34,866 bases of DNA from Candidatus Saccharimonadota bacterium (GTDB lineage Bacteria > Patescibacteriota > Saccharimonadia > Saccharimonadales > VXPC01), in NCBI GenBank assembly GCA_026707815.1, contig JAPOWB010000004.1, positions 1 through 34,866 on the forward strand, in the 5' to 3' direction. The first letter of the stretch is position 1. The number at the start of each line of letters is the position of its first letter. Positions 6,281 through 29,502 of this stretch are shown piece after piece. The position numbers were made by a program, and so were the translations under genes. Below the pieces are notes generated by a model, which did not search any database, was not told the origin of the DNA, and saw only the letters and a list, made by a program, of their open reading frames with translations.

Positions 6281-6284
6281 ATAT

Positions 6285-6338
6285 ATTAATCCCTATGGGA
6301 TGATTGTAATAACTCAAATCAAAATAAATGATATCCTT
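6285..6338 (-). pseudogene. 54-bp relic of a VirD4-like coupling-protein gene
   Basis: 43/54 nt identical by manual alignment to 21692-21745; KDIIYFDLSYYNHPIGIN vs KDVIYFNPSDYNHPIGIN. Confidence 0.75.
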
Positions 6339-6537
6339 GCGGCAGAAATTTCGTTTTTACAAGAAGTCGTTTATAAGAAGGTCAGTGAATAATTACTGAA
6401 TGATACTCATCTCTTTCTCATATGAAAGGTATTGTTGAGTGATTTATCCATGGCAGAAGCAACCACAATGATCTCCAATTTTCGAAAAATATACTATAAT
6501 AGGTGTAACTAATATAAGTAGGTATCACTAGCGGATT

Positions 6538-7149
6538 ATGAGTCTTACGAAAACTAAAGAAAAACAGATACTATTTTGGATATTAATTGGTTTAGTTGCT
6601 TGGATTGCGATTGTTGTGACTGTGTTAGTTTTTATTTACGATAACGAAACAGAAAATCAATCTAGCAATGATATTCCAAATAAGGTGGAATCTAACAGTA
6701 TGGAGACTTATGTACTTCTGGATAAAGAAACTGCCAAGAGTTATTCACTTCTAGATGAATACATTGCAGAGAATTACCAGCGATGTGATGATTTTGAGCC
6801 GATCACAACCAAGGGGTTTGGTATTTTTGGTGAATCACGTTATTGTCAGAGGCAACTCAAGGGTCAAGCTAACTATGATTTGCAAATAACCCGTTTCAAT
6901 GCTGAGCGTGACTACTTGTTGACAATATTGCGTAAAAACGAAGATAGATGTCTCGAAAAGAATTACTACCTTGCTTCTGTCGGACATGGCTTCGGTATAT
7001 CAGTTTGGTTATATTATGAAGATGGAATATCAGAACCTAAATTTTATAGCACAGAGTATACAGAAAAATTAAATCAGCGAACTAAAGAAGAGCATCAACT
7101 GTTAGAGGAAGCTGGTCTAGAAGTAGATCTTGTCAATGTCTGTAAGTAG
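6538..7149 (+). CDS. Hypothetical membrane-anchored protein
   Basis: Single N-terminal TM helix; 203 aa; four Cys. Confidence 0.75.
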   Translation: MSLTKTKEKQILFWILIGLVAWIAIVVTVLVFIYDNETENQSSNDIPNKVESNSMETYVLLDKETAKSYSLLDEYIAENYQRCDDFEPITTKGFGIFGESRYCQRQLKGQANYDLQITRFNAERDYLLTILRKNEDRCLEKNYYLASVGHGFGISVWLYYEDGISEPKFYSTEYTEKLNQRTKEEHQLLEEAGLEVDLVNVCK

Positions 7150-7265
7150 CGTGAGCAAGATAGAAGTTGTTTTATAACAACTCATTTTTGTGGTGGTACA
7201 CTTTTTTACAAACTACTAACGTATACAAATTGGTCGGTGAAAAACTTGGAATTTCGATTGCGACC

Positions 7266-7491
7266 ACCCGAATTACGAAATTAAGTCTAACCTCTTAGAC
7301 ATCTAATAACCTAGTAGAACTCTAAAATAATGGACTAAATAACCTCGAATACTCCTAGGATAAGAAGTCACCAACGAGAACTTTTGCTTAAGAATGCCAA
7401 AGACAGCTTCGATTTTAGAACGCTCTCTTAAAAGCTGTCTATCTTCTAAGGTCGTTAAGCTTAGTCTTTTGGCTGAAATGAGCTGAAGCAA
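7266..7491 (-). mobile_element. Truncated IS982-family element (terminal IR plus transposase C-terminus)
   Basis: ACCCGAATTACG at 7266 (IS982 IRs start ACCC); peptide RSKIEAVFGILK...PRSIRGYLVHYFRVLLGY. Confidence 0.7.
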
Positions 7492-7582
7492 TAATTTTTA
7501 GACCCTACTTTTTAACAATGGTTCGAGTTAGCAGCGCTTTTGTGCTAGTATATGGCTAAAATAGCTGGAGAGGAATCAGACC

Positions 7583-7903
7583 ATGACTAAAAGAGAAATC
7601 AAGATGCTCGGGGACTTGCTTGAGTACGAAATCTTCCATCTGGAAGGCGTTGTCAATGCTTTCAATTCTAAAGAAAGCAATAAGAGTCTGCGTGATCTGA
7701 AATCAATCCGCAAAGTTTTGCAAAAGCCTGATGTCCGAATCGGTGGCTCTCTGAACAAAGACCAGAAAGAGATTCTACTCAACCTGATCAAGCAAGCCCA
7801 ACTGGAAGCTCAACGCATCTTGGACAAACAAGAGAAGATTAGAAAGATCCAGCAGGATTCGAGCATCTTAAACAGACTAGAAAAATCCCTGCACGCCGCC
7901 TAG
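7583..7903 (+). CDS. Hypothetical helical/coiled-coil protein
   Basis: 106 aa, GGAGAGG-type RBS, co-oriented and 9 bp upstream of the DUF3800-like gene. Confidence 0.7.
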   Translation: MTKREIKMLGDLLEYEIFHLEGVVNAFNSKESNKSLRDLKSIRKVLQKPDVRIGGSLNKDQKEILLNLIKQAQLEAQRILDKQEKIRKIQQDSSILNRLEKSLHAA

Positions 7904-7912
7904 GAGCAGTCA

Positions 7913-8656
7913 ATGTTCCTAGTTATCGATGAGAGCAAGAGTGGGAGTAGCACGACTGTCGGTTGCCTGTGTCTGCCTGATTCAGACTTCGCCAAAGCCG
8001 AAGCTATGGTTTTGGATGCCAGAATCCGCGAAAGGTGCTGGGGTGAGATTAAATGGCAGGATGCCCGGGGCGATTATGCCTCCAAATATACTAGGATCCT
8101 TGCCGATTATTTCAATTGCTCAGACAGGGTAACTTTTCATTCGCTGACTTATAAAAAACTGGGCTCGCAAGCTAAATCTCGGCTCAAGCGTTTGTTTCCG
8201 GACAGATCGTGGGACGAAGAGAGGGTTCTAGACCGCCGGACTTACCAGCTGATTCGCACCGTCATTTGGAAGTGCAGGCAAGCCGGGTATGATTCCAACT
8301 ATTACATCATCGGCGACCGGCGTGGCAGTGATGACAACTCGGTCTACCGGACAATCGGCGACTTATTGGCCAAAGACAGCAAAGTTAGGATTAAGCCGCA
8401 GTTTTGCTCAACAGGCACCTCAGCCGTACTGGGATCACTGCAAATTGCTGACCTGTGCGCCGGAGCTATCGCCTCCTGTTATGAAGCCAGCTATCACCAA
8501 CTCGACACGCAGCAGATTAAAGCAAAGTTAATCGAGATAAACAAGAATGTAGAACTCACTTATTCTCCATCTCGGCTACCCAAGTTACATGACCACCGCC
8601 TGCACCATTGGCTATTCGACGAAACCAGAAGCAGATTTTACGGACTAATCAAATAG
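7913..8656 (+). CDS. DUF3800-like (RNase H-like fold) protein
   Basis: N-terminal FLVIDES, GEIKW, and C-terminal LQIADLCAG motifs. Confidence 0.75.
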   Translation: MFLVIDESKSGSSTTVGCLCLPDSDFAKAEAMVLDARIRERCWGEIKWQDARGDYASKYTRILADYFNCSDRVTFHSLTYKKLGSQAKSRLKRLFPDRSWDEERVLDRRTYQLIRTVIWKCRQAGYDSNYYIIGDRRGSDDNSVYRTIGDLLAKDSKVRIKPQFCSTGTSAVLGSLQIADLCAGAIASCYEASYHQLDTQQIKAKLIEINKNVELTYSPSRLPKLHDHRLHHWLFDETRSRFYGLIK

Positions 8657-8658
8657 CC

Positions 8659-10182
8659 TTAGCCCTCTGAGGTAACACTTGGAGTCACCAGATAATCTAT
8701 AATTCTGGTCATAATCTCCTCAAAAGACTCTTCGTGTTCAGTCTTCAGATTCCCCAACTTATCAAAACAACCCCTAGGTCCGTCTCTTTTACACTTGCAA
8801 TCACACTTTTTGTCGCATTTGGAGCATCTGTTCTTGTCTCTGATGTCTTCGGTAGGCAACTGAAAGAATCTAAATCCCTCTTTTCTTAGAAACTTTTTCC
8901 GAGCTTTCGCTATAGCCTCCGATTCGCTAGCGCCACCGTCATATAATGCTGCCACCCTCCCTATTCTCAAATCTTTAGCCATCGCCAGAAGTTTCTCTAT
9001 CTTTTGGAAACCACCCGCACCATACCCGAATATATTGAGGGTTATACCTCCTCGGTTTTTAGCCAACCATTTTCGTATTAGCCCGACATCTTCCTGACCC
9101 TCTACAAAGAGAATGCTATTGGCAAACATTATTTCTTTGGCCACCGTATCCATGAGTTGTGGTTTCATCCACTCTTCTTTAATCAGCGAGGGGGTATATT
9201 TGGCAGGCTTTTTGAGTTCCGAAATCACGCATCTCCCATCATCGATCTTATTAAGCCTGACGAATTTTGCACCATTCTTATAATCATTCCAGTTCACGAA
9301 ATAAGGGGAATGGGTGCAGACTATTATTTGTTTGTTTGCCGATGACTCCGAGATCAGTCTGGCCAATCCGGACTGGGCTACTGGATGCAAAGACAGTTCA
9401 GGTTCATCTATGATTAGCACGGGAACTTCATCGGGCTTATCATCCATGAGGTGTAGGCAAATTCGGAAAAGCGACAATGTGCCGTCACCGAGCAAATCAG
9501 CCCTATGTGCGCCCTTACTGGTTACATATTCCAAATAATCTTGGTTGTCTGACCCGGTGTCTATATCCCAATCCGTGAAACCTGGGATTAAGGTTTTTAG
9601 CATATCGTCCAGTCTTTGCTTTTTATCTTTATCGTCACGTATACTACCCAGCTTTCTGAATGTCAGACTATCGCCCGTGGCTTGACGCAGTTTCATGTAG
9701 TTCGTAACCTGATTCCCGTATTCCGGGAAATCCCGAGTTCCATACCGCGATAAGTCATCGACAATAGACCAGTGTCTCCTTGAGGCAACAGCCTCCAAGT
9801 TCGGTGCTGGAATGTTAGCAATCTCGCCATTGTCATTGTAAATTGTATAGTCTCGGTATGACCCCTTGCCCTGATTGGTAATCGCTACCCTGTATCTACC
9901 ATGAGAAGAATTTTCAAAGCATATATTTATCTTTGGTTTATTGTTCTCGTGTCTATCTGGCTGTCTAAATTTTTGTAAGTTATCTTGCCGCATTTGCAAC
10001 AGCGCCTCTAGTACTGATGTCTTACCAGCATTGTTCGGACCCACGACTAAGGTTAGTCCACTCCCTGGCTTGCCGGCAGGTATTCCGAAGTTAAACGATT
10101 GCTCGTCAAAGAAACCCCTGTAGTGTTCGATTTTAAGTTTTGTCAGTCGTTGTTTTTCAGAATCTTGCATAAAGAGTACCAC
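8659..10182 (-). CDS. OLD-family ATP-dependent nuclease (ABC ATPase + TOPRIM)
   Basis: Walker A GPNNAGKTS, LGDG, IIDEPELSLHP, CTHS, TOPRIM FVEGQED; Cys-rich tail CSKCDKKCDCKC. Confidence 0.85.
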   Translation of the reverse strand: MVLFMQDSEKQRLTKLKIEHYRGFFDEQSFNFGIPAGKPGSGLTLVVGPNNAGKTSVLEALLQMRQDNLQKFRQPDRHENNKPKINICFENSSHGRYRVAITNQGKGSYRDYTIYNDNGEIANIPAPNLEAVASRRHWSIVDDLSRYGTRDFPEYGNQVTNYMKLRQATGDSLTFRKLGSIRDDKDKKQRLDDMLKTLIPGFTDWDIDTGSDNQDYLEYVTSKGAHRADLLGDGTLSLFRICLHLMDDKPDEVPVLIIDEPELSLHPVAQSGLARLISESSANKQIIVCTHSPYFVNWNDYKNGAKFVRLNKIDDGRCVISELKKPAKYTPSLIKEEWMKPQLMDTVAKEIMFANSILFVEGQEDVGLIRKWLAKNRGGITLNIFGYGAGGFQKIEKLLAMAKDLRIGRVAALYDGGASESEAIAKARKKFLRKEGFRFFQLPTEDIRDKNRCSKCDKKCDCKCKRDGPRGCFDKLGNLKTEHEESFEEIMTRIIDYLVTPSVTSEG

Positions 10183-10199
10183 CTAGTATTCTACCATAG

Positions 10200-10610
10200 T
10201 TGAACAACTCAAAGATAAGCCGACAAATCAGCACCAAAGAAGCTCAACTTGTAAAAGCCGTTGAACTCAGACTCAATGATGAAATAGATGAAAGTGAGCT
10301 TAAAACTATTAGAATTAAAAACAAAGACAGCCTAGACAAACTTCAATCACAGCTTGATTCTATCAATAAACTTTTAAGCCAAGAATCTAATCAAGTCTTA
10401 GATTTGGCTTCAATTATAAATGAATGCATTCACCTCTATAAATTAGCCAACAAACAAGAAAAAGGTTCGATACTTAAAATTGTCTGTTCGAACCTCTTTT
10501 TTGACGGCAAAAATATTAATTTACATCTGTCAAATCCCTTCAATTTGCTACAAGAATGTCATACTAGTTCACTATGGCGACTCCAAGTGAATCTATTTCG
10601 AACACTCTGA
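10200..10610 (+). pseudogene. C-terminal relic of a large serine recombinase
   Basis: Coiled coil then YKLANKQEKGSILKIVCSNLFFDGK...PFNLL...W..FRT, typical of serine-integrase tails; no catalytic domain. Confidence 0.7.
10575..10589 (+). other. Putative left attachment junction
   Basis: TGGCGACTCCA vs TGGTGACCCCA (32973, tRNA 3' end antisense): 9/11, same orientation. Confidence 0.55.
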
Positions 10611-10709
10611 CTCATTATATTGAATTATTCAATGATTTAGAAAAGAAATGTAATTTTGAATTAAACAAGAACCAAGAATTAACTTGTTTTATTTGCGAAA
10701 GGGGTTGCA

Positions 10710-11174
10710 ATGTTTAGTTTCTTACATAATCCGTCTCCTCAGCAACAACTATTATCTTCTAAGCTTTATAGTGAGGCAAACTTTTATAAAGCTTTTATCA
10801 AAGATTTAAAACAAGCCAAAAGAAACATTATCATTGACAGCTCTTATCTGACAGAGACAAGGGTCAAATATTTAGCTCCCTTACTTCAAAAATTAACCAA
10901 ACGCAAAATCAAAGTCAGAATCAATACACGAGATTTTGACCATCACAACCATGCTATGAGGCTTCAAGCCTGCAAGGCTCTCCAAATTCTCAAAACAACC
11001 GGAGTCAATGTCTATGCTTACAAAGACAGACGGCATTTTAAATTAGCCATCATAGACAAAGCTATTCTTTGGGAAGGTAGCCTCAATATTTTGTCTCACT
11101 CCAACAGCCGAGAAGTCATGCGTCGCAGTCAATCATCCAAACTGTGTCACCGGATGATTAAATTTATTAACTAA
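10710..11174 (+). CDS. Single-domain PLD-like (Nuc-type) nuclease
   Basis: HKD motif HFKLAIID followed by WEGSLN. Confidence 0.85.
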   Translation: MFSFLHNPSPQQQLLSSKLYSEANFYKAFIKDLKQAKRNIIIDSSYLTETRVKYLAPLLQKLTKRKIKVRINTRDFDHHNHAMRLQACKALQILKTTGVNVYAYKDRRHFKLAIIDKAILWEGSLNILSHSNSREVMRRSQSSKLCHRMIKFIN

Positions 11175-11192
11175 CTAAGATATACTAAAATT

Positions 11193-11408
11193 ATGAATGG
11201 CTATAAGATTACGGAAAAAGACATCCAAACTGTCATCAATTTTTTAAAGCGAGAAGATCCGAATAACGCCAACCGCCAGTATGCCCTCGAAGTGCTAGAA
11301 ATCCTTCATGCTACCATTAAAACCGCCGTTTCAAACGACCCCGACTTTGCCGAAGAACTATACAAAGCCCTCAAGCAAAAGCAGGGCTCAGACAAACAAA
11401 AAGACTAA
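11193..11408 (+). CDS. Small hypothetical protein
   Basis: 71-aa helical ORF co-oriented with the PLD gene. Confidence 0.7.
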   Translation: MNGYKITEKDIQTVINFLKREDPNNANRQYALEVLEILHATIKTAVSNDPDFAEELYKALKQKQGSDKQKD

Positions 11409-11620
11409 AAAGGCAGAATATCTGAAGCCTGAACTTTCAAAGCTTTGACCAATAAACCAAGCGTAAATATATTAGGAGTTGTCTCCCCTCTCTCAATTCG
11501 AGCATAATGACTAACATTAAGCCCCGTCTTTTCAGCCAACTCCAACTGAGTCAAACCTTTACTGAGCCTAACTTTCCTTAAATTCTTACCGATTGTTCTA
11601 ACTAGCTTATCCTGATTCAT
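11405..11620 (-). CDS. XRE-family helix-turn-helix regulator
   Basis: IGKNLRKVRLSKGLTQLELAEKTGL...ARIERGETTP. Confidence 0.92.
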   Translation of the reverse strand: MNQDKLVRTIGKNLRKVRLSKGLTQLELAEKTGLNVSHYARIERGETTPNIFTLGLLVKALKVQASDILPF

Positions 11621-11806
11621 ACTAAGACCCAGTATATCTTAAAAGACCAAGACCCACCAACAAACAAAACAAACCAAACTTTAAATACAAAGAGAACTCG
11701 TTATTACCCACTCATTCTATACATAATCCCCCAAAAAGCAAATAAATCTCACCCAACAGATATAAACACTCCAAAACCCAACCACTGCAAACCGAAAAAC
11801 AACCTA

Positions 11807-11911
11807 AAATAACAAAATATAGCTAAATTAGAACAAAAAATGCCACTTCTAGAACAAATTAGACCTGCTTTGGAACAAAAATAATCAGATTTAGGACATA
11901 AACCCAAATTT
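11807..11911 (+). repeat. 21-bp-period iteron-like array (4-5 units, core TTAGAACAAA)
   Basis: Cores at 11828 TTAGAACAAA, 11849 CTAGAACAAA, 11870 TTGGAACAAA, 11891 TTAGGACATA; partial at 11807 AAATAACAAA. Confidence 0.6.
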
Positions 11912-12054
11912 ATTGAGATCTAATTTAGGTTTGAATTGAATTATTAGCCCACCTAACAACTATATTTATGTTAGACTTCGATTAGGCTTGGTGTTATTTT
12001 GCCTGAATCGCAATAACGCTAAATCAATGTTCAGGCTGTCTAATAAATAATGAT

Positions 12055-14289
12055 ATGAAACTAAATAAAATACAGTACATAAACTTTGCCAGTTTTAAGG
12101 ATTTTGAATGTAGCAAAGACACTAAAGAATTCAGAAATATAAATATCATTTTGGGATGGAACGGCTCGGGTAAGACAACTCTATCTAAGGTTTTACGTTC
12201 CCTAGAATTAGAATTGCCCGAGGAAGGTATGAGCTTCCAATTAAAAATAGATTCAAGAAGATACACCGAATCTAACATGCCCCCGAATTCAACAAGCAAG
12301 ATAAGAGTGTTCAATAATGATTATGTGAAAAAGGTATTAGCATCTAATTCAGCAATCCCCTATGTATTTTACATCGGAGAAGAGGGTGTTGATTATGCCG
12401 AAAAAGAGCAAGAGTTACAAAGTAAGCAAGATAACTTAGACGGGCTGAAGTGTGATGCTGATAATCATGACCGTATAGCGACGGACACAGCTGGAAGAAT
12501 AAGAGATGTCGCAGGAATTAATATAATTCCTCGACCTCTTTCCGATGGTAAATATGGCGATTATGACAAAAGGGATTTTATATACCGCATTAAGTTTTTC
12601 GAGAATGAATTTGAAAAAGAAGGGTCGAAAATGCTCCCGGCGCAATACATAGAGAAAACCTATTTATTAACAGAGGATGAAGTAAAGAATTTCAGGAAGC
12701 AAATAAACAATTCTGAGCAGTTTAACAAAGTTGAACAGAAAACTAAGGAGATAATCGGCTGGATTAAAGATAATGAAGAACCCCTAAATTCCCTTTTGCA
12801 AAAGACCCCCGAACGGAGATCATCACAACGCATTGAAGATATGGATGCGGCGGAACAAGAATGGGTGCAATTAGGTGTAGGCATTCATTTCCCTGATAAT
12901 GACAACGATCCCAGGACAAAATGCTTGTTTTGTGCTTCGGATATTAAAAACGAAGAGGAGCTTCGTCTACACTTTTCTAAAGAAGTACTTGAGTTATCAG
13001 GCAGGTTGGAGGGCTTCGAAAAACAGATTGCCGAACATCAACAAACGCTAAATAATTTATCCGTTATAGATGCCGACCAGAAGACAACCATTAAAACTTT
13101 GAATGACCATCTTGATTCAGTACTTGAAAAAGTAAAAGAAAAAAGTGAACAAATTCCTGCTGCTTTAGACCCCTTGGAGCCATTCAATCCTAAACACCTT
13201 ACAAAGACCAATATTCCCGAAACAAGAACAGCGAACAGAGAACAATTTTGGGCTCAAAAGATTGAGTGTCATTATGTCGCGAAAGTAGTCGGGAAATATT
13301 TAGACGAAAAACAGCAATACGAAAAATGTGAAGAAGAACGCGGGGAATTATCACAAGAGATAGAAAAGTTAAACGAAGAGGTAGCTGAACTTAGGCTTAA
13401 AGCTCAGAATAAGCATGAAGCAGCGCAAAAGTTGAGTGATACATTTAAAGCTATTTTCCCATACGGACAAATAACAATACAGGATAATGATGAAAATACA
13501 GGGTACAAGCTCACAAGGGGTGGTGTTCCTTGCGATTTATCCAGTTTAAGCGAAGGAGAACACAATTTGCTGGCTCTGATGTATTTCTTAATTGCATTGA
13601 ACGATGAGAATCGTAAATTAGATGATAATGCCCTAATCGTCATTGACGACCCTATATCCAGCCTAGATAAGAACTCCATCTACCAAATTTTCTCTCTCAT
13701 AGTAGATGAAATTGAGAAGAATAAAGATAGCCGACAATACATTCTAATGACACATAGCTTAGATTTTCTGGGACATCTGCTTGAGCATTACAGAAAGAAA
13801 ATCAACGAACAGGAAGAAGAAAAGCAGACTGTCTGCCTCTACAACGTATCTTTATCTTCCGAGGGCTCGGAGATTACAAATATGAACAGTTTGTTACAGA
13901 AATATAAGTCTGATTACTATTATTTGTTTGACATCTTAAGGCGGAAGTTAAAAGGTTGTCCACCCGAAGAGAACTACTTAATAGCTAATCTTTTGAGAAG
14001 ATGGCTGGAAACTTTTCTCAACTTCAAATTTTCGTCTGACGGGAATTTCCAAGGTCTTTTAAGTAAAGCTCATAAAACAAGCGGGCTAGATCAAGACTCC
14101 AACTATCAGATAACAGCGTTGCGCAGATTCCTTGATTCTGGCTCCCATGGACTACCAGACACAGAAACATCAAACAACAGTCTCTTTGAGGATGATGTGA
14201 CCTCAATGATAAAGATGGCTTTTAAGCTGGTTGAAAAGACAGACAAGGATCACTTCTCTAAATTAAAGAAGGTGCTAGGTGAAACTTGA
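12055..14289 (+). CDS. AAA_13 / RloC-like ABC ATPase with zinc hook and C-terminal nuclease-like domain
   Basis: GWNGSGKTT, coiled coil with CLFC, LSEGE, IVIDDPISSLD, MTH; C-terminal RRWLE...RFLDSGSH. Confidence 0.8.
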   Translation: MKLNKIQYINFASFKDFECSKDTKEFRNINIILGWNGSGKTTLSKVLRSLELELPEEGMSFQLKIDSRRYTESNMPPNSTSKIRVFNNDYVKKVLASNSAIPYVFYIGEEGVDYAEKEQELQSKQDNLDGLKCDADNHDRIATDTAGRIRDVAGINIIPRPLSDGKYGDYDKRDFIYRIKFFENEFEKEGSKMLPAQYIEKTYLLTEDEVKNFRKQINNSEQFNKVEQKTKEIIGWIKDNEEPLNSLLQKTPERRSSQRIEDMDAAEQEWVQLGVGIHFPDNDNDPRTKCLFCASDIKNEEELRLHFSKEVLELSGRLEGFEKQIAEHQQTLNNLSVIDADQKTTIKTLNDHLDSVLEKVKEKSEQIPAALDPLEPFNPKHLTKTNIPETRTANREQFWAQKIECHYVAKVVGKYLDEKQQYEKCEEERGELSQEIEKLNEEVAELRLKAQNKHEAAQKLSDTFKAIFPYGQITIQDNDENTGYKLTRGGVPCDLSSLSEGEHNLLALMYFLIALNDENRKLDDNALIVIDDPISSLDKNSIYQIFSLIVDEIEKNKDSRQYILMTHSLDFLGHLLEHYRKKINEQEEEKQTVCLYNVSLSSEGSEITNMNSLLQKYKSDYYYLFDILRRKLKGCPPEENYLIANLLRRWLETFLNFKFSSDGNFQGLLSKAHKTSGLDQDSNYQITALRRFLDSGSHGLPDTETSNNSLFEDDVTSMIKMAFKLVEKTDKDHFSKLKKVLGET

Positions 14290-14390
14290 CAGTTATACAT
14301 TCAGTTCAAAATAAGCTTCAGCCCATGATGAAATTTTCACATCAACCAGCTATCTCTCAAATAAAGAGTTAAACCTCATCACTGATTGAT

Positions 14391-14996
14391 GTGTATAATA
14401 ACAGTTACTTGTTGCATTTAAGCAATTTAATGGATTACAATTTGGTCATAACTATCACGATTAGCCTTTTCTCTGTCCTTGTGACAATCATAGTCACTGA
14501 ATATATCAGATATATCTTAAATAAAGAATATAATGGAATAGTCTTAGCCAACTTTGTCAACAGCTGTATTGAAATCAGTGATGGATTAGAAAAAGCTATT
14601 AAAAAAGGAGAGCCAGAAAAAATGCTCTCAGTAATTAAAATGTTTAGCAAATTGAAACATGAATATCTTAAAAATATTAGAACAGACTTAATTACGAGAT
14701 ATTTTTTTGAACAGAGAATATTTAAAAAAATGAGGGTCAAAACATTAACTAAGAAGGATTTAGAGTTTAATAAAAAATCCTTATTCGAATCTGCCCAGAC
14801 GATTAAATTATCTATTTTAGATATGAGTCAAATTAAGAATATTAAAGAATTGAAACTTGAAAAAGGCGAAGGAAATTCATGGCGGATAATGATAAAGAAT
14901 AAGTACGGGTTTCCTTGCAAGTTTTCCGGTAGTTATTCCTCCAAAAAGAAAGCTAAACAGGTCTTAAAGAGAATTAAAAAGCATCAGGTTGATTAA
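14391..14996 (+). CDS. Hypothetical membrane-anchored basic protein
   Basis: One TM helix near the N-terminus; start uncertain. Confidence 0.6.
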   Translation: MYNNSYLLHLSNLMDYNLVITITISLFSVLVTIIVTEYIRYILNKEYNGIVLANFVNSCIEISDGLEKAIKKGEPEKMLSVIKMFSKLKHEYLKNIRTDLITRYFFEQRIFKKMRVKTLTKKDLEFNKKSLFESAQTIKLSILDMSQIKNIKELKLEKGEGNSWRIMIKNKYGFPCKFSGSYSSKKKAKQVLKRIKKHQVD

Positions 14997-15057
14997 TACC
15001 TAGCTCTGTCAAAACACGTGATAGGTTGAAGATTTTTGTTTTTTGTTATATTAGCAT

Positions 15058-17910
15058 CTAATTTAAAAACTCTGTTGTCTCAAGGTCTGGAGTATCTACC
15101 ATAAAAACATCTATTAAATTCATAACTTCCTTTTTAACCCTTTCAATGATTGGTCGCCTCTTAAGAATTCGTGGCTTATTATTTAATATATTGGCAATTT
15201 CCTCATTAAGGGGTTCACGACCATGAAACATGAAGTTTGCAATAATTTCTTCTAGTTTCTGTCTGTCAATATTTTCACTTTCGCAAAATTGATTAAAAGC
15301 TAACTGCTTCTCTTCTTCCCAATAATCAACGAATTTTTCTAAAACTTGTTCTGGGTCTTCAATTATTGGCAAACTATTGTCTATGAATTTTTTAATCAAT
15401 CCTTGCTTGCTTCTTAAAACTACTTCGCTAGATATAAGTGTTAATATTTGTTCTTTTTGCCGTTGAATTTCTAGTTCAGATTTCATTTTATTCATCTTAG
15501 ATATGAGTTTAAGGATATAAGCTACGTTAATGTTATCTCTATGGATTAACTCAACTTCAAAATCAACATCTTCAAGAATAGATGCCTGCTCTTTCTGAGT
15601 GTCTGTCCTGACTTTATCCCATATGTCCAGATATTTACTTTTGTAATCCTCAAACTGTTGTTCGGCAATATTCAGATCAGAAAATTTAAAATCAGAAAAT
15701 CCAATCAAATCGTTCATAAATCTCAATAAATTTCTAAAAGCTTGGACAAACCGCATTTCATCGTCTTCCGATGGTAATTTATTCACGCTTTCAACGGTTG
15801 GGGTGATTGAATATAAAATTTCAATAGCTTCATTAAATTTATCAACATAGTAACTATATGGTTCTGTAAAAATAATTTCAGGGGCATCTTTATTAGAATA
15901 TAAAGCTATAGCATCATCTGTGTTCTTTTTTAAATTTCTAAAGCAAACAATATTGCCATGGGATTTCCTTTCATTAAGAATGCGATTAGTTCTAGAAAAA
16001 GCTTGAATTAAACCGTGATAGCGTAAGTTTTTATCTACATATAAGGTATTTAAATGAGGGCTATCGAAACCAGTTAGAAACATATTGACCACTAACAAAA
16101 TATCAATTTCCTGATTTCTTACTCTTTTGGCAATATTTTGATAATAATCGTAATAAAGCTTTCCATCTTTAGTCGAATAGGCAGTATCAAACATCTTATT
16201 ATAGTCATCAATAAATTCGTCTAATTTTTCGCGAAAATGAGTATTAATCTTTTTGCTTTCAATAACAGACAAAACATCATCTTCTAGCAACTCGTTATCC
16301 TCTTCACTTTCCTGATTAGCTCCATAAGAGAATATAGTAGCTACTTTTAAATCATGCTTACCTTCACTCTTCTTGGTTTGAAAAAGCTCATAATATTTAA
16401 TCAGGACATCGATTGAATTGACGCATAAAATGGCTGTAAAAACTTTGCTATGAGTTTTACGATCATGATTGACTAAAATATAATCGATAATTTTTTCAAT
16501 CCTCTTTCTTGACTCCATTAATTCTTTGGTATCTATAGCCTCAACTTCAATATCTATTTCATTATTGCTAGAAATTTGCCTATATCTGCCGACGTATTCA
16601 TTAGAAAATCTAAGCACGTTTTCGTCCTTTATGGCATCGGTAATCGTATAACGATGCAGTTGTTTATCAAATAAATCCTTGGTGGTTTTCTTGCTGATGG
16701 CATTTTCCGCTAGGATAGGTGTTCCAGTAAAACCGAACATTTGTGATTTTAAGAAATGGTTTTTAATTTTGGCGTGAGTTTCACCGAATTGGCTGCGATG
16801 ACATTCATCAAAAATAAGAACGACCCTTTTATTTTTTAGTTTTTCCATAATATTTTGATGACGACTATAAGAAACAGCATTGTTCAATTTTTGTATAGTA
16901 GTAACAATTAATTTAGTGTTGTCTGTTAATTGTTTGACTAAGGCTTTTGTATTGTCTGTGGCATCAGCAGAATTGGCTTTGTAAGCATTAAATTCCTGAA
17001 TTGTCTGATAATCCAAATCTTTGCGATCAACTACAAAAATAATCTTTTTTATTTCAGGCAAAGCAGATAATAGTTGGCTGGCTTTAAAGGAGGTTAAAGT
17101 TTTCCCCGAACCAGTAGTATGCCAAATATAGCCGTTTTTATCTGAGTTTAATACTCTATCAATAATTGATTCTACTGCGTAATATTGATAAGGTCGCAAA
17201 ACCATCAATTTTCTCTCAGTTTCATTTAAGACTGTATATTGAGCGATCATTTTTGACATATGGCAGGGTTCTAAGAAAATATCTGTAAACTCACTTAATT
17301 GAGTGACGGAAACATTATCTTTATCTGACCAGTAAAAAGTCTGTTTAAAAAACCGCCTTTTATTATTAGCATAATATTTGGTGTTAACTCCATTACTAAT
17401 TACAAAAAATTGAATGTATTGGAATAAGCCATAACCAGCACTATAAGAGTGTTGTTGGTAGCGTTTAGTTTGCTTAAAAGCCTCCTTGAGTTCTAAGCCC
17501 CGCCTCTTCAACTCTATTTGCACCAACGGTAAGCCATTCACTAATAGAGTAACGTCATATCTGTTTTTATACCTTCCCTCCATCTCTATTTGTTGGGCAA
17601 CTTGAAAAATATTTTTGCACCATTTATCTATGTCAAAAAATTCAATCCATTCTAAATCACCATTGTCGCGAGTAAGTTGCATCTTGTCTCGCAAAATCTT
17701 CGATCTCTCAAAAATATTGCCTTTATTTAAATGATTTAAAATATAACTGAACTCCTTATCGCTAAAAACAGTTTGATTATGTTTGCTAAGCTGGATTCTC
17801 AAATTAGCTACAATGTCAGCTTCATCTTTAATTTCAATTTTGCCGTAACCCAAATCAACTAATTGATTAATCAGTTTCCTTTCTAGTATTGCCTCTGACT
17901 CCCTGTTCAT
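15058..17910 (-). CDS. hsdR: Type I restriction endonuclease subunit R
   Basis: LPLVQIELK, HTTGSGKT, DECHR, FLTGFD, QAFSRTNR; ATG 17910 overlaps the hsdS stop (ATGA). Confidence 0.95.
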   Translation of the reverse strand: MNRESEAILERKLINQLVDLGYGKIEIKDEADIVANLRIQLSKHNQTVFSDKEFSYILNHLNKGNIFERSKILRDKMQLTRDNGDLEWIEFFDIDKWCKNIFQVAQQIEMEGRYKNRYDVTLLVNGLPLVQIELKRRGLELKEAFKQTKRYQQHSYSAGYGLFQYIQFFVISNGVNTKYYANNKRRFFKQTFYWSDKDNVSVTQLSEFTDIFLEPCHMSKMIAQYTVLNETERKLMVLRPYQYYAVESIIDRVLNSDKNGYIWHTTGSGKTLTSFKASQLLSALPEIKKIIFVVDRKDLDYQTIQEFNAYKANSADATDNTKALVKQLTDNTKLIVTTIQKLNNAVSYSRHQNIMEKLKNKRVVLIFDECHRSQFGETHAKIKNHFLKSQMFGFTGTPILAENAISKKTTKDLFDKQLHRYTITDAIKDENVLRFSNEYVGRYRQISSNNEIDIEVEAIDTKELMESRKRIEKIIDYILVNHDRKTHSKVFTAILCVNSIDVLIKYYELFQTKKSEGKHDLKVATIFSYGANQESEEDNELLEDDVLSVIESKKINTHFREKLDEFIDDYNKMFDTAYSTKDGKLYYDYYQNIAKRVRNQEIDILLVVNMFLTGFDSPHLNTLYVDKNLRYHGLIQAFSRTNRILNERKSHGNIVCFRNLKKNTDDAIALYSNKDAPEIIFTEPYSYYVDKFNEAIEILYSITPTVESVNKLPSEDDEMRFVQAFRNLLRFMNDLIGFSDFKFSDLNIAEQQFEDYKSKYLDIWDKVRTDTQKEQASILEDVDFEVELIHRDNINVAYILKLISKMNKMKSELEIQRQKEQILTLISSEVVLRSKQGLIKKFIDNSLPIIEDPEQVLEKFVDYWEEEKQLAFNQFCESENIDRQKLEEIIANFMFHGREPLNEEIANILNNKPRILKRRPIIERVKKEVMNLIDVFMVDTPDLETTEFLN

Positions 17911-19076
17911 TGTATAAATAGTCTTTGCATTAACCCTTTTTTGTATAGCTTCCAATATATGATATTGGTCTTTGCAATTGATGCTATTTTGTCCAAAATA
18001 TTTAACACTTGCTCTATTCTTTCTTGCTCTTTAATTGCTGGTATTGAAATCTGCAAATATTGGTATTCTGAAATCCAATGTCTTTTATGTCCTCGTGGTT
18101 TGTATTGTATTTGAGTTAGTAGCTCGTATATAACCTTAGGTCGAATGTTTTTATTAAATTTTAAAATTTTCATAGCAGAGGATTTAACCTTGAATTCAAA
18201 ATTTACAAATTGTTTAGATGTGGTAAAGTCATCAAATATTACAACCGGTAGCTTTGTAAATCTGTTGTCAGATTCATTAGTATAGCCTAGTATGAAAGTT
18301 TTGCCAGCAGTTAGAATCGGCATAGAACCCTTCTCACAATATTGCTTACAAGTGGTGATATATCTAGTTGGTTGTTCATAAGTTAATAACTCTTTTAATC
18401 TATAGGTTTGCCAGTTGGGGTAGTTATACCCCCCCCCGTCCTTGAATCTAATCTTTTTATTAAAGATTTGTTGCATTAACCCTTTTTTATATTGCTCAAA
18501 CTGATATTTTTGTTGCTCTAAGAGATTAAGCTTGTTATTCACAGTATCAAAAAAATCAGCTATCTTCTCTTGCTCTTCAATACAGGGTATTTTTAGTTTA
18601 AAATCTGCTAGGGTACTAAAATCAAGAGAATCCCTCACTGATCCTAAAGTGCCAGTTTTTATTAAATGCTGAAAATAATGAGTTTTTAAAATATGTTTTA
18701 AAAAATTTTCATTTAAATTATTACTACATCTAAATACGATATACATAGGACTAATAATTCCAATATCAAATTCTGTTAGATTGGCAATAGAACCCACATT
18801 GATTCTCGATGGATTGTAAGCGAAATCACCCCTCTCAACAATTTTATAATTCAAGGTATCTCTACTTGCAATTCTGTGATTATTAAAATATTCAGATTGT
18901 TCTATAAATCCATGTAAATTGCTAACAGTTAATAGCCTATTTATTTCGCCGTTTTTGTTGCGAATAGATTTATGAGTAATGAGTTCTCCCAGTCTAATTT
19001 TTTCCCATTCAGGGTAATCCTTACCATTCTTGTCCTTAAATCTTAAATGAGGAATATATTCAGAAGATATTTTCAA
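17907..19076 (-). CDS. hsdS: Type I R-M specificity subunit
   Basis: Two TRDs with conserved PCIEEQEKIA / PAIKEQERI and KKGLMQ repeats. Confidence 0.93.
   Translation of the reverse strand: MKISSEYIPHLRFKDKNGKDYPEWEKIRLGELITHKSIRNKNGEINRLLTVSNLHGFIEQSEYFNNHRIASRDTLNYKIVERGDFAYNPSRINVGSIANLTEFDIGIISPMYIVFRCSNNLNENFLKHILKTHYFQHLIKTGTLGSVRDSLDFSTLADFKLKIPCIEEQEKIADFFDTVNNKLNLLEQQKYQFEQYKKGLMQQIFNKKIRFKDGGGYNYPNWQTYRLKELLTYEQPTRYITTCKQYCEKGSMPILTAGKTFILGYTNESDNRFTKLPVVIFDDFTTSKQFVNFEFKVKSSAMKILKFNKNIRPKVIYELLTQIQYKPRGHKRHWISEYQYLQISIPAIKEQERIEQVLNILDKIASIAKTNIIYWKLYKKGLMQRLFIQ
18429..18437 (-). repeat. In-frame poly-G9 in the hsdS central region
   Basis: GAC GGG GGG GGG TAT (D-G-G-G-Y) between TRD1 and TRD2. 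Confidence 0.85.
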
Positions 19077-20614
19077 TTCCTAACTCCTTTGTATATTGAT
19101 TAATTTGAGCCTGAATCTTAATTCTTTCTTTTTCTAAATCTCTAATATTGTCAGATATTTCATCAATATCAATAAATTTCTCTTCTTCAAATGTATCTAC
19201 ATAAATGGGAATATTTAGCATATAATTATTTCTTTCAATATCGTCTAATTTGACAAGATGGCTAAACATTTTTATTTCAGATCTTAATCTATATGTTTGA
19301 ATAATTTTATCTATATGTCTAACCAACAATTTATTTTTCTTTTTAGTTTTTTCAAATTCTTTAGAAGCATCAATAAATATTATATTGTCATCGGTTTCAC
19401 GACATTTTTTAAAAATCAAAATACAAGCAGAAATATTTGTTCCATAGAAAAGATTAGGAGGTAAACCAATCACAGCATCTAGATAATTTTTTGTTTCAAT
19501 TAAATATCTTCGTATATGTGCTTCGCCCCCCCCCCCGAGACAAAGCACCATGAGACATAATAGTTGCCATAACTCCATTTTCATCTAAGGAATGTATCAT
19601 GTGTTGTATAAAAGCATAATCTGCATATTTTTTGGAAGCCAATCTACCATATTGTGAAAATCTATCATCACTTTTAAAAAGTGGGTTAGCTGACCAATCT
19701 GCTGAAAATGGAGGATTTGCTACCACCGCTTCAAATTTTCTATCTTTGTGCATGGGTCTTTCTAGGGTATCAGCTTGTTTAATATCAAACTGATTATAAT
19801 GAATATCATGAAGAATCATATTCATTCTAGCTAAGTTATAAGTTGTCAGCACTTTCTCTTGACCAACGTATTCACCCACCTCCTTAACTTCCTTAGCTAC
19901 ACGCAATAATAATGATCCTGAACCGCAAGTTGGATCATAAACGTTTTTTAATTTGTTTTTACCAGTTGTTACAATTTTTGCCAATACTTTTGAAACTTCT
20001 TGTGGGGTATAAAATTCTCCAGCTTTCTTGCCTGCTCCAGCAGCAAACTGACTAATTAAATATTCATATGCATCTCCTAAGATGTCGATACTGGAGTTTT
20101 CAAGTTTAAAGTCGATGTCATCTAAATGAAGCAGTATTTTAACAATTAAGTTATTTTTCTCATTTTCAGTTTTACCTAATTTAGGAGAAGATAAATTTAA
20201 TCCTTCAAATAAATTATCAAAATCATCTTCACTATTTGTCCCCATGGTGCTTGATTCGATGTTTTTGAGGATTTTTTGTAAATCTTCTAAGATAAAATTA
20301 TCCTTTCCTTTTTCAGCAATGGCATGAAAAAGTTCGGATGGTTTCAAAAAATATCCCAAAGAATCAAGAGTCTCGATTTTAATTTCTTCCAATATATTCT
20401 TGCCTTGCTCAGCATTTTCATCTACATCTTCGTAATTGCAATTATCTTGTTGGAGTAATTCATTAGCTTTGATATGTAATTTTTCAGATAGGTACTTATA
20501 AAAGATAAAACCAAGAATATAATCACGAAATTCATCTGCATTCATCTGACCCCTGAGAGTGTTAGCTATATTCCAAAGTTGTTTTTCTAGCTGGTGTTTT
20601 TGATCTTCAGACAT
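19060..20614 (-). CDS. hsdM: Type I R-M methyltransferase, frameshifted at poly-G11
   Basis: GEFYTP, DPTCGSGSLL, ANPPFS; ORFs 19496-20614 and 19060-19584 join into 517 aa if one G is removed (HGALSRGGGEAHIRRYLIE). Confidence 0.92.
19526..19536 (-). repeat. Poly-G11 tract at the hsdM frameshift
   Basis: C11 on the plus strand; G10 restores the frame. Confidence 0.9.
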
Positions 20615-20716
20615 TAATTATGTTTATTTTTTTAAATATTGTCGTCTTATTACAGTTATACCTAAAATCAAATATTTTATCAATATGACAACTGCTAAGC
20701 AGATATGCCTCTTTTA

Positions 20717-22999
20717 TCATTTTGATTTGTCAACAAACTTTCTTCTCGAGGATTGAATAACTGCCTGTCTTCTCTGTTTATAAGGAGGAGTTGGAGTTAA
20801 TTTAGTTATACCAGAGATTGGTTCTTTAGGTGTAATAGCAGACAACTTAGCATAGAAATTATATGCTGGCAGATTAAGAAATTCAGGCAGAGAGATATAT
20901 GGCTCGAATAGGGGCAGTATTAATCTGGCATCCATAGGTGAGCCAGACCTAAAAGCAATGATGTTGCCGACATTAGCTAGTATGACTTCGGTTAGTTTTT
21001 GGCTGTCTTGTTGCTGGGTCGATTGTTCGGCAAGTATAAGGTTAAGCTTGTATTTTCTGGATTCAGACAACATTTCAATGAAGCCTTTGGTGATGAAGTT
21101 TTGAAATTCATCGACATAGAGATAAAAAGGAATTCGCTTGTTTTCGCTCATGTTAGCCTGCTCTAAGATTGCCAGCTGTATTTTAGCGAGTATCGTTGCT
21201 CCAAACAGTCTGGAAGTATCTTCTCCCAGCAGTCCTTTAGAAAAATTACAAATTAGGATTTTACTAGAGTTAATGACTTCTTTGAAATTCAGACAGTTAT
21301 CTGTTTTCTCAAAAACGCTTCTGGTAGCTTGAGAGAACAAGAATCGACCCATCTTGGCAGTTACTCCGGCTTGCATCTTGACCCTTTGGTATTCCCCGGC
21401 TTTATGGATTTCATTAAGCCAGAAGTTCTTTAAATTCTCATCTTTTAAAACGCTGTGGACAATCTTCTTGTTATAACTGTTATCATTTAAGAGCTTAAAT
21501 ATCGTAAAGAAAGTGGCGTCTTCAATGCAAAGAGCGGTATGAACGGTATTTCTTAAGACGTATTCTATCCGGTGTCCGCCTTTGTTTTCCTCAGTGAAGA
21601 CTTTCCTGAAAATTGAGACGACCGTTTCAGCTACCAAGTCTTTAGCTCTTAATAATTCCTTGTCTTTTAACTTGGGCGGAATCTCCAATAAATTAATTCC
21701 TATGGGGTGATTATAGTCGCTCGGATTAAAATAAATAACATCCTTTATTCTGTTTTTGGGGATGTATCCCAACAACTCAGTTGACAGATCTCCGTGAGGA
21801 TCGACTACTGCTACTCCTCTATCTGATTCAATATCTTGAATGATTTTGTATTTTAGGAGAGTAGTCTTGCCAGATCCTGTGCCGCCAATGATATAAACAT
21901 GGCGACTTCTCTCTAAGGCACTTAGGCTAATTGGTGTTCTTCTGTTTTGATGGACATTCTCTCCAATGATTACTCCATCTTCTTTAGATTGATTCGTCTT
22001 GGGATGAGCCGGCAGAGTCTTGCTTAAAGTCGTATCTAAATTCTCAAAGGATACTGATCTTAAATCAGGCAGATGATACAAGCTTGCCAATTGTTCGGCA
22101 TTCAAATAAAGACCGCTCTTCAAAGGCTCTATTAGTCTTAACCTAAAGCAAGCCAAATTAAATTTGCCAGTTTTATAACTCACTTTGAATTTAGCCAGCA
22201 AATCCAAGGCTGACCTCAAGCTTTGAGTATATTGGTTTAAGACTCGCTGACTAGAAGCTTGAATCAGGCATCTTAAATTGATTTGAAATAATTCATCAGG
22301 CTTGCTGGTCGGCTTACTAGTTGATATCTTTGCGACCTCAACTCCTTGGATAGGATGAATGATATTGGTCAGCAAACTGAGTGGCATCTGCCCTAGCTTA
22401 GATAGCAACGAACTGAATAAACCGGCAGCTCCAGCCTTTATCGGCTTATAAACAATCTGATACACAATTTGATCACCATCTTCAAGCTGAACCATGCCAC
22501 TAAGCAGATAGCTCAAAGAATCATGATTCTCCCGATCTTTGAAGGTTTTAACATCCGCTTGTTTGGAAGCAGACTTAAAATTTAGCAACCTTATGAATTT
22601 AGTTTCCAACCACTGGTAATCGGAAACTTGGCTAACTCTGATTGTCCAATCATAGGAAGCAATCAGTCTCATGACTGTTTGTTTTTGATGCCGAGGCACT
22701 ATCAACAAGAAACAGATACCCTCGGATTTGTTGGCGACTATTTCTAAACTGTAAAATGATCGCTTGGCTAAAAACTGCGTCTTATTAGCAAAGCTTAGAT
22801 GATGCAGGGCTTGAAACAATGTCTTCATATTGTTCAAGGTACTGATCTCAGCATTAGAATTGGGCTTAATTTCCAAAACGATTCTGGGAGTCAGCCTTCT
22901 TTTCGCCCAAGCCAACTTTATTTTTTGCCAGTTAAAAATCAGTATCATACTCAATACCAGACTCAGTATTGAGCAGCCAACTATAATCGACAAGTTCAC
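20717..22999 (-). CDS. VirD4/TraG-like type IV coupling ATPase
   Basis: N-terminal TM, RHVYIIGGTGSGKTT, DPHGD, LYVDEFQNF, SESRKY. Confidence 0.88.
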   Translation of the reverse strand: MNLSIIVGCSILSLVLSMILIFNWQKIKLAWAKRRLTPRIVLEIKPNSNAEISTLNNMKTLFQALHHLSFANKTQFLAKRSFYSLEIVANKSEGICFLLIVPRHQKQTVMRLIASYDWTIRVSQVSDYQWLETKFIRLLNFKSASKQADVKTFKDRENHDSLSYLLSGMVQLEDGDQIVYQIVYKPIKAGAAGLFSSLLSKLGQMPLSLLTNIIHPIQGVEVAKISTSKPTSKPDELFQINLRCLIQASSQRVLNQYTQSLRSALDLLAKFKVSYKTGKFNLACFRLRLIEPLKSGLYLNAEQLASLYHLPDLRSVSFENLDTTLSKTLPAHPKTNQSKEDGVIIGENVHQNRRTPISLSALERSRHVYIIGGTGSGKTTLLKYKIIQDIESDRGVAVVDPHGDLSTELLGYIPKNRIKDVIYFNPSDYNHPIGINLLEIPPKLKDKELLRAKDLVAETVVSIFRKVFTEENKGGHRIEYVLRNTVHTALCIEDATFFTIFKLLNDNSYNKKIVHSVLKDENLKNFWLNEIHKAGEYQRVKMQAGVTAKMGRFLFSQATRSVFEKTDNCLNFKEVINSSKILICNFSKGLLGEDTSRLFGATILAKIQLAILEQANMSENKRIPFYLYVDEFQNFITKGFIEMLSESRKYKLNLILAEQSTQQQDSQKLTEVILANVGNIIAFRSGSPMDARLILPLFEPYISLPEFLNLPAYNFYAKLSAITPKEPISGITKLTPTPPYKQRRQAVIQSSRRKFVDKSK

Positions 23000-28045: not shown

Positions 28046-29179
28046 ATGCAAGATTCCATCCAAACAAAGTATCATAAGCAAGGTGTCTCATCTGTGAATC
28101 ATATTATTCTTGATGAAACACCTACAACTCGTCTAATCTTTTATCCCAAAGTACACGATAGCGGCGTGAGAGGAGATATAGTGCGCCAAAAAATCGGTTC
28201 TGATGGGCAATGGAAAGACAGAAACGACATTGATTTCAGATCATTAGAGGCAGACAAGGGTGTCAAAATTCCAATTAGCACCAAGGCGACTGATTTATTA
28301 TTTAACAAGCTTAGATCTTTATATGAAATTGTTAAAAAAGGAGCGCCTCGCTCTAACAAAGAACTTATAGTTACAGAATCAGATAAAGCTTTGACTATAG
28401 ATGACAGAAATAAACAAAGAATTCTTCAGCAAATTATAAATCAAAATTATTCTGAGTCATTTTGGGAGGAATTATCAAAAACAAGTCCTAAGCTTGCGAC
28501 GCAATTCTCTATAGATCGAATCCAATTAGATAGACAAGAAGTAATTAAAGAGTTCAAAACATCATTAATTCAGCATGCTAATGAAGAAAAATATTGGCAA
28601 AAATTTTTTGAGGATAATCCTTGGATGCTACAAGTAGCATTTGGGGCTTCTATATTTATGTTGGCGGGGGAAACATATTTAGGTGGTAAATCAACTAAAG
28701 GCAAGCAGGGGCGTGGTGGCGTCTCAACTGATTTTCTTTTCGCTGATGAAAGTACTAAAAGCTTTGCAGTTATGGAAATCAAAAAACCAAAATCTAGTTT
28801 AATGTTAAAATCTGCATATCGAGGCAAACTAGGCTCTAATCTCAAAAATGAAATTTATAGTTTAGGTTCTGAGCTTTCAGGAGCCATTGTTCAGGCACAA
28901 AGCCAATTAACAGTGGCAATCGAAAATTTTCAATCTTTATTAGGAGATAATGCTGAATTTTCTTACAAGATTAATCTTATAGATCCTAAAGCTATTCTAG
29001 TTATTGGCATGTCAGGTGAATTACAGCAACAAAGACAAAAAGATTCGTTTAATCAATTTCGTTCAGGGCTTCATAGCCCAATAATAGTTACTTTTGATGA
29101 ACTATATCATAGGTTAAGTCAAATATATGGAATCAGTTCTCAGGATGAAGATATAGACTCAAATGATATGCCCTTTTAA
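28046..29179 (+). CDS. sduA: Shedu anti-phage nuclease (DUF4263)
   Basis: EKYWQKFFEDNPWML, TDFL, MEIKKP, ELSGAIVQ, ILVIG, IVTFDEL. Confidence 0.88.
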   Translation: MQDSIQTKYHKQGVSSVNHIILDETPTTRLIFYPKVHDSGVRGDIVRQKIGSDGQWKDRNDIDFRSLEADKGVKIPISTKATDLLFNKLRSLYEIVKKGAPRSNKELIVTESDKALTIDDRNKQRILQQIINQNYSESFWEELSKTSPKLATQFSIDRIQLDRQEVIKEFKTSLIQHANEEKYWQKFFEDNPWMLQVAFGASIFMLAGETYLGGKSTKGKQGRGGVSTDFLFADESTKSFAVMEIKKPKSSLMLKSAYRGKLGSNLKNEIYSLGSELSGAIVQAQSQLTVAIENFQSLLGDNAEFSYKINLIDPKAILVIGMSGELQQQRQKDSFNQFRSGLHSPIIVTFDELYHRLSQIYGISSQDEDIDSNDMPF

Positions 29180-29193
29180 TTATAATCATTGAT

Positions 29194-29502
29194 ATGGCTA
29201 GAAGATACAATAAACGAAGCAATTATCATAGAATCAAGAAGAATTATAAACGACATAGAAACAGTAGGCAAAAGGATAATTTAGAAGACTTTCTATCTAA
29301 TAAAGATGTTTTAGTATTCATATCTAAAATTATAATTACTATACTTCTCATTATTACTGTAGTCGGGGGTGTTTTGTTCGCTGTTTATAAAATTTGGCAT
29401 CAAGCCGAATGGCTTAAATTAACAAAGATTATCTTAACGGCAGTTACTGTGCTGGCTGGTGCTAGCATTTTATACGGAGCATACCATTTTTTGATTAGTT
29501 GA
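29194..29502 (+). CDS. Small two-TM protein with basic N-terminus
   Basis: 14 bp downstream of sduA; two hydrophobic helices. Confidence 0.6.
   Translation: MARRYNKRSNYHRIKKNYKRHRNSRQKDNLEDFLSNKDVLVFISKIIITILLIITVVGGVLFAVYKIWHQAEWLKLTKIILTAVTVLAGASILYGAYHFLIS

Follow-up and report, generated by a model that had tools for sequence, protein, structure and literature searches.

Two poly-G tracts as candidate slippage switches in a type IC-like restriction-modification operon of a sponge-associated Saccharibacteria bacterium

Phase-variable type I restriction-modification systems are known from pathogens. Here we describe a candidate system of this kind in a sponge-associated Saccharibacteria bacterium, in which one operon carries a guanine tract in hsdM, the gene for the methyltransferase subunit, and a second in hsdS, the gene for the specificity subunit. 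The operon lies at positions 15058 to 20614 of contig JAPOWB010000004.1 (assembly GCA_026707815.1); the whole 34,866 nucleotides of this contig, named C5 where contigs have to be told apart, were analyzed and are called the window below. The source genome comprises 692 kb in 9 contigs, is 93% complete and has 36% G+C. We hold, with a little better than even confidence, that the tracts are two slipped-strand switches in one type IC-like operon, that of hsdM turning the methylase off and on and that of hsdS alternating a full with a half specificity subunit and thereby changing the recognition site. Individually they are credible slippage switches of a known kind, the NgoAV type for hsdS and the Haemophilus influenzae type for hsdM.

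In NgoAV of Neisseria gonorrhoeae a poly-G tract governs whether a 208 amino acid (aa) HsdS recognizing GCAN8TGC or a fused HsdS recognizing GCAN7STCA is made (PMC9577141). The operon in the window shares with it a G run placed between the first target recognition domain (TRD1) with its central helix and the second (TRD2), and one-base slippage in either system separates a half HsdS of about 210 aa from a full HsdS of about 400 aa. It differs in that hsdM also carries a tract, none being described for NgoAV in the text of PMC9577141 used here, and in belonging to an uncultured Saccharibacteria host; moreover, hsdS switching was shown for NgoAV and is predicted here. According to a survey of REBASE, 7.9% of hsdS genes and 2% of hsdM genes contain repeats, the simple sequence repeats (SSRs) of hsdS always lying between the TRDs and those of hsdM giving ON/OFF switching (PMC7383803). 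The CGAGA repeats of H. influenzae hsdM and the ACAGC repeats of Mannheimia haemolytica hsdM are predicted there to turn the whole system on and off (PMC7383803). As in those genes, the repeat described here is inside the hsdM coding sequence, but theirs are pentanucleotides mostly in the 5′ region, whereas ours is a mononucleotide G run about 70% into the gene and within a conserved motif. The hsdM and hsdS repeats of M. haemolytica belong to different systems, while here both occur in one operon, and the portions of the survey that deal with such repeats describe them in separate systems only (PMC7383803). Measured against those portions, each switch alone is of a known kind, and what is new is that one operon has both, that the design appears twice in the same genome, and that the host belongs to this lineage.

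The half subunit expected from the hsdS tract also has counterparts in the truncated HsdS proteins of EcoR124I and EcoDXXI, which belong to the same type IC enzyme family. Those truncations are reportedly laboratory deletions or insertions and not a natural reversible tract, whereas the tract here is natural and its reversal is proposed. According to PMC3936762, which cites Abadjieva 1993 and MacWilliams & Bickle 1996, a half subunit of one TRD and the conserved region next to it is enough to specify a palindromic site, and the single-TRD HsdS JHP0785 recognizes the palindrome RTAYN5RTAY.

The operon and its two tracts

The genes are ordered hsdM-hsdS-hsdR on the minus strand. Pfam, NCBIfam and an alignment of homologues identify hsdM at 19060..20614; hsdS, at 17907..19076, encodes 389 aa with the Pfam domain Methylase_S; and hsdR, for the restriction subunit, was assigned by Pfam and NCBIfam and spans 15058..17910, giving 950 aa from the ATG at 17910. 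The open reading frame (ORF) that holds HsdR is longer, at 15058..17955(-), and the 950-aa form is the one called in another assembly (P0128). The genes are tightly packed: the hsdM stop and the TTG start of hsdS overlap by 17 nt, with AAGGAG upstream of that start at 19084-19089, and the ATG of hsdR overlaps the stop codon of hsdS in the sequence ATGA. The NCBIfam families are TIGR00497 for hsdM and TIGR00348 for hsdR, and the Pfam domains of HsdR are HSDR_N, SWI2_SNF2, a T1R_D3-like domain and EcoR124_C (E 1.6e-58). HsdR matches the EcoR124I/II HsdR of the PDB over residues 4-742 (E 1.5e-173), while the best PDB match of HsdS is EcoR124II HsdS, to residues 21-172 of which TRD2 aligns (E 7e-35). 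Because the nearest solved relatives of HsdR and HsdS are those of EcoR124, the system is type IC-like (EcoR124 family) as judged from its sequence; restriction and N6-methyladenine (m6A) methylation are predicted activities of its genes.

The hsdM tract is a G11 run (C11 on the plus strand) at 19526..19536 of the minus strand, and is the proposed ON/OFF switch. It divides the gene into an N-terminal ORF at 19496..20614(-), of 372 aa with HsdM_N and positions 2-194 of the 311 of N6_Mtase, and a C-terminal ORF in another frame at 19060..19584(-), of 174 aa with N6_Mtase positions 190-310. Together the two pieces cover positions 1-381 and 374-507 of the 515 in TIGR00497. When the length of the tract was changed by script, G10 gave 517 aa and G13 gave 518 aa, and G8, G9, G11 and G12 all gave 370-372 aa, confirming the original prediction that G11 shifts the frame of hsdM and that G10 yields a 517-aa protein. 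Gain or loss of G would therefore bring the methylase in or out of frame, with G10 or G13 as the on state and the observed G11 as the off state, and since both methylation and restriction require HsdM, this tract would switch the whole system.

At G10 the tract would read CGG GGG GGG GGC, the R-G-G-G of a conserved motif L-[FS]-R-G-[GA]-A-E. Homologue loci have the motif LFRG[GA][AS]E in mixed codons, and the closest proteins (72-76% identity) read L[FS]RGGAE in an alignment to homologues of 521-523 aa. The run itself is not kept: none of the 160 homologue loci (52-76% identity), namely the best 80 of 230 relatives on genome contigs and the best 80 of 268 on metagenome contigs, has a G/C run of at least 7 at the motif. 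Both scans returned homologues of 52-76% identity only, with no near-identical copy among the best 80 of each. The rarest codons of the genome for their amino acids include GGG for glycine (12%) and CGG for arginine (7.7%), and the tracts use both; they were built against codon bias, through Ala/Xaa-to-Gly changes.

Chance does not account for such runs in this genome. There are 24 G/C runs of at least 9, where base composition predicts 0.23 and ten 3rd-order Markov simulations produced 0-4, and the length spectrum is bimodal, with 58 runs of 6, 4 of 7, 3 of 8, 15 of 9, 4 of 10, 3 of 11 and 2 of 12. A/T runs of at least 9 are depleted (5 against 33.5 expected), none being longer than 9. Four of the 24 long G/C runs fall in the 5,445 bp of hsdM and hsdS at two loci, the second of which is described below, where 0.19 would be expected (Poisson P 4.6e-5). 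On this sequence evidence the tracts are derived and lineage-specific, not products of chance. One published criterion for phase variation is a mononucleotide repeat of at least 9 within a coding sequence (PMC7383803); the hsdM run has 11 and the hsdS run 9, the latter between the TRDs and after the coiled coil.

The hsdS tract is an in-frame G9 (C9 on the plus strand) at 18429..18437 of the minus strand, where GGG GGG GGG encodes Gly214-216; it is the proposed switch between full-length and half HsdS. The protein has a segment RFKDKNG in its N-terminal part and RFKDGGG centrally, at the tract, as had been claimed when the G9 was placed in frame between the two TRDs, and homologues aligned at this junction read RFKDxxGxxYPxWE. 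Scripted changes of length give 389 aa at G9, 217 aa at G10 (with GGGV as the last residues before the stop) and, at G8, 226 aa, in agreement with the earlier statement that G10 stops at once and G8 about 11 codons later. In an AlphaFold model of the HsdS monomer (predicted local distance difference test, pLDDT, 88), a central helix at 166-205 and a C-terminal helix at 348-387 alternate with beta-rich domains, so that the layout is TRD1, central helix, linker, TRD2 and C-terminal helix. Gly214-216 lie in a loop of the model that joins helix 166-205 to TRD2, whose first strand is at 223. Because this tract-encoded loop falls after the helix and before TRD2, the short product is predicted by the model to keep TRD1 and the complete central helix, and it ends much as the full protein does, where only two residues follow helix 348-387. 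Among HsdS homologues P0009, P0010, P0012, P0071, P0082 and P0089, some have this TRD1 in their second half and some have the TRDs in swapped order. Such swapping fits TRD-plus-helix halves acting as exchangeable modules.

While the consequences of each tract for the reading frame were computed directly from the sequence, the later steps of the mechanism are proposed. Adding or removing one G in the tract of hsdS would end translation just past the central coiled-coil helix, and the resulting half HsdS, of TRD1 and helix, would pair with a second copy of itself, so that a symmetric site would replace the asymmetric site read by two TRDs. By analogy with NgoAV, EcoR124I and EcoDXXI, we infer that the half subunit would be active, giving three states per system; frequent and reversible switching in cells is presumed in the same way.

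Tract alleles and a second operon

The design occurs a second time in this genome. Contig C8 (locus L010) carries a divergent type I operon, with ordinary chromosomal genes around it, that repeats the layout of an hsdM tract and a tract at the hsdS junction, although the strongest DNA match between the C5 and C8 loci is a 170-base stretch of 71% identity. Its hsdM is broken at a G9 near codon 152 of 524, and G10 would give 524 aa. Its hsdS encodes 381 aa, with an in-frame G9 six residues past the central helix motif (the helix includes LEAELEAELEA), and one G more or less would leave 192-197 aa. The hsdM tracts lie at different codons, about 360 of 517 on C5 and about 152 of 524 on C8, and therefore arose separately, while both hsdS tracts sit at the same structural point. 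A 163-aa ORF at L010 4940-5431, between hsdM and hsdS of the C8 operon, matched no Pfam, NCBIfam or PADLOC family. The nearest described parallel is Salmonella enterica Sen5604, in which two unlinked hsdS genes each have a G12 between the TRDs (PMC7383803). There too, one genome contains two type I systems with an inter-TRD G tract in each hsdS, but the Sen5604 hsdS genes share TRD2 and their operons are near-duplicates, whereas the two systems here are divergent and each also has an hsdM tract.

Different tract lengths are found in public assemblies. The N-terminal part of HsdM is 372 aa in the window (G11) and 371 aa (P0122) in another assembly, on a contig of 166,228 bp; P0122 is identical to the former apart from its tail, which is the predicted G12 product. 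For the operon on C8, HsdS is 381 aa on 3 contigs and 196 aa (P0126) on a Logan contig, where it ends exactly as predicted for G8, and the N-terminal part of HsdM is 174 aa, or 156 aa in a slightly different strain. In a relative of 83% identity (P0249), the C-terminal part of HsdM starts at the same internal Met. The reading of the hsdM tract as an ON/OFF switch is partly supported, by the two lengths G11 and G12, provided that the two assemblies are independent, and by the derived nature of the tract, while no ON allele was found; that of the hsdS tract as a specificity switch draws on the G9 and G8 alleles of the paralogous gene, while the hsdS of the window is G9 in both assemblies.

Several results weigh against two working switches. 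An in-frame hsdM of the window locus was found in 0 of 2 alleles (G11, G12), with no near-identical protein of about 517 aa among the best 120 matches, and hsdM of C8 occurs in split forms only, with no in-frame allele among its best 120. The window hsdS is G9, encoding 389 aa, on both of the two assembly contigs that hold HsdS, and no near-identical form of 217 or 226 aa is present among the best 120 matches (213-681 aa). The read evidence consists of Logan contigs of four runs (X1-X4) from one sponge-metagenome sample, at depth 3-9. These contigs, which drop rare variants, show no indel at either tract, a result compatible with mixed as well as uniform lengths. One listed contig each in X1 and X2 bridges the hsdS tract without a gap, at G9; with G9 in 2/2 assemblies and in these two bridging contigs, switching of the window hsdS is not seen. 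The hsdM tract is bridged by no Logan contig among the matches listed (32 listed, 261 more), and the listed contigs of run X1 stop at 19507 and resume at 19526, the edge of this tract. The short out-of-frame tails that follow the hsdS tracts were considered as a sign of design and rejected, since 68% of the off-frame tails in the genome are of at most 10 codons; being common across this genome, they argue nothing. Half subunits are, furthermore, not always active, the Helicobacter pylori JHP1422 half having given no palindromic site (PMC3936762).

That last observation, together with the lack of any truncated allele of the window hsdS in the material above, is what favors a reading in which the hsdM tract alone works as a switch. 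That in hsdS would then be a slippery glycine linker, where a frameshift merely knocks out HsdS and provides a second route to OFF with specificity unchanged. We judge this unlikely. Both hsdS tracts sit directly after a complete central helix, and this point is the location of all hsdS SSRs in the survey and of the NgoAV specificity switch (PMC7383803, PMC9577141); a truncated allele of the paralogue (P0126) exists in a public assembly; and the system is of type IC, the type in which the truncation work cited in PMC3936762 was done.

The differing lengths at hsdM bear on another possibility, that the tracts vary through homopolymer sequencing or assembly error and that the true genes are a stable G10 hsdM and a stable G9 hsdS with no switching. 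The assemblies that differ may share a sample or reads, in which case G11 versus G12 could be a disagreement of assemblers over noisy homopolymer reads. Long G runs are prone to error in Illumina reads, the depth is low, and Logan contigs are interrupted at the G11 tract and also at a C12 tract elsewhere in the window. Error cannot, however, create the tracts themselves or a bimodal length spectrum, and A/T runs have no such excess. In addition, hsdM is out of frame in the other assembly too, in the opposite direction (G12), and the paralogous locus has both G8 and G9 alleles, and we regard error as a very unlikely explanation of the whole.

All hsdM alleles found, including that of the 83%-identity relative (P0249), are out of frame, as would be expected if slippage had silenced both hsdM genes and left them, in the reduced genome of a symbiont, on course to become pseudogenes and not adaptive switches. 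This kind of decay seems to us distinctly improbable, although less so than error. Apart from the tracts both type I operons are intact, with no further lesion in hsdM, hsdS or hsdR of either; every break in frame falls at a tract, where a single slippage event undoes it; the tracts had to be built by amino acid changes that run against codon bias; and two out-of-frame lengths, G11 and G12, point to ongoing length change, not to a fixed lesion.

Chromosomal setting and genome-wide tracts

The type I locus is chromosomal and not on a plasmid. It had been proposed to lie on a mobile element, which is not supported, since the ends of the contig match chromosomal contigs (the last 39 nt of C5 are the start of C4, and the first 55 nt are the start of C8) and the same HsdS is found on the 166-kb contig of the other assembly. 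A plasmid or circular element was considered for C5 and rejected, there being no terminal overlap and the ends matching other contigs; a search of a plasmid collection returned only short hsdR matches, covering at most 2% of the query. The first kilobase of C5 is part of a repeat present at most contig ends. This stretch, window 1-1012, belongs to a gene family of RHS/DUF2963-like type, whose many copies lie at or close to the majority of contig ends, and here Logan contigs show many alternative forms, skips and raised depth, and a G8 run at 323-330 lies 41 nt upstream of the ORF at 371-1012. A 383-aa piece of RpoB has 64-66% identity to two Saccharibacteria-labelled genomes and 53-55% to Paceibacterota, Gracilibacteria and Peribacteria.

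The window, an entire contig, is a defense island adjoining type IV secretion genes. A PDC-S06/AAA_13 protein at 12055-14289 is the neighbor of hsdR, and an OLD/Gabija/AriA-like ATPase lies at 8659-10182, Shedu SduA at 28046-29179 and a large serine recombinase at 31322-33013. Two PIN toxins with a zeta-toxin fragment, a PLD nuclease, and a Bsp6I-like endonuclease with a C5 methylase fall within the stretches 2223-14289 or 28046-33013. A C12 run at 5288-5299 lies 52 nt upstream of an ORF at 5351-6280 (309 aa, no Pfam or PADLOC family), and Logan contigs of three runs halt at or just before it (5287, 5267, 5280). A G7 run at 34449-34455 is within the small overlapping minus-strand ORFs 34370-34714 and 34491-34856, for which there was no family match. 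A scan for promoters and terminators at 14300-21000 was uninformative, with 29 promoter-like sites against 33.5 in shuffles.

Across the genome, long G/C tracts lie in or beside 2 hsdM, 2 hsdS, a small N6-MTase, GmrSD, an HSDR_N_2 protein, WhiB, a Calx-beta giant protein and RHS-like genes. The small N6-adenine methyltransferase (204 aa, G000:C3:75589-76203) is the third tract-bearing methylase of the genome, its in-frame G9 encoding the GGG of the S-adenosylmethionine-binding motif DPCVGGGN. A C9 run precedes the start of a GmrSD-type restriction gene (G000:C2:9975-11754) by 23 nt, and a G9 run precedes that of an HSDR_N_2-domain gene (G000:C9:541-1260) by 22 nt. We suggest, tentatively and with more doubt than belief, that these genes could form a stochastic restriction-modification switchboard in an ultra-small episymbiotic bacterium of the candidate phyla radiation (CPR), consisting of two divergent type IC systems with three states each and up to nine combined, together with the tract-bearing N6-methyltransferase and the tract-preceded GmrSD and HSDR_N-like genes. 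In that case the CPR would have its first systems of the phasevarion type. The methylases appear mostly off in the sampled populations, which on this reading might fit a lifestyle dependent on the uptake of foreign DNA.

The genome as a whole resembles those with contingency loci in Campylobacter jejuni, H. pylori and Neisseria, being small and A+T-rich, its G/C runs peaking again at 9-12 nt and occurring in restriction-modification, surface-protein and regulator genes; unlike theirs, its phylum is in the CPR. To our knowledge, C. jejuni, H. pylori and Neisseria are without mismatch repair. MutS and MutL were not detected here, the domains MutS_V and DNA_mis_repair (MutL) having no match in this 93%-complete genome, with controls positive in 11 of 14 genomes.

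Long G runs are uncommon in related genomes, 32 of 40 relatives being without any G9 run, and a DNA search of the 40 for the locus gave weak matches only, in 2 genomes. In three relatives with G9 runs (G002, G014 and G015) hsdM is intact, and the sole G/C run of at least 7 in the fetched stretches is a C7, which in the hsd stretch of G002 sits on contig C28, of 58% G+C; relatives G008 and G012 gave no N6_Mtase match. The same-family genome G002 also contains G runs of tens of bases (G002:C2:9265-9317, G002:C18:32547-32591), which look more like sequencing artefacts than biology, and for this reason its high G9 count is not taken as a phasome.

No literature report of homopolymer phase variation in Saccharibacteria was found, and Saccharibacteria, TM7, Saccharimonas and Patescibacteria had 0 matches in 7 supplementary files of PMC7383803. 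If the proposed switches are real, they would mean that even a minimal episymbiont puts resources into bet-hedging, through mutation, of its defense and methylome. The operon would also offer a natural three-state type I system with which to test how cells survive a change of restriction specificity.

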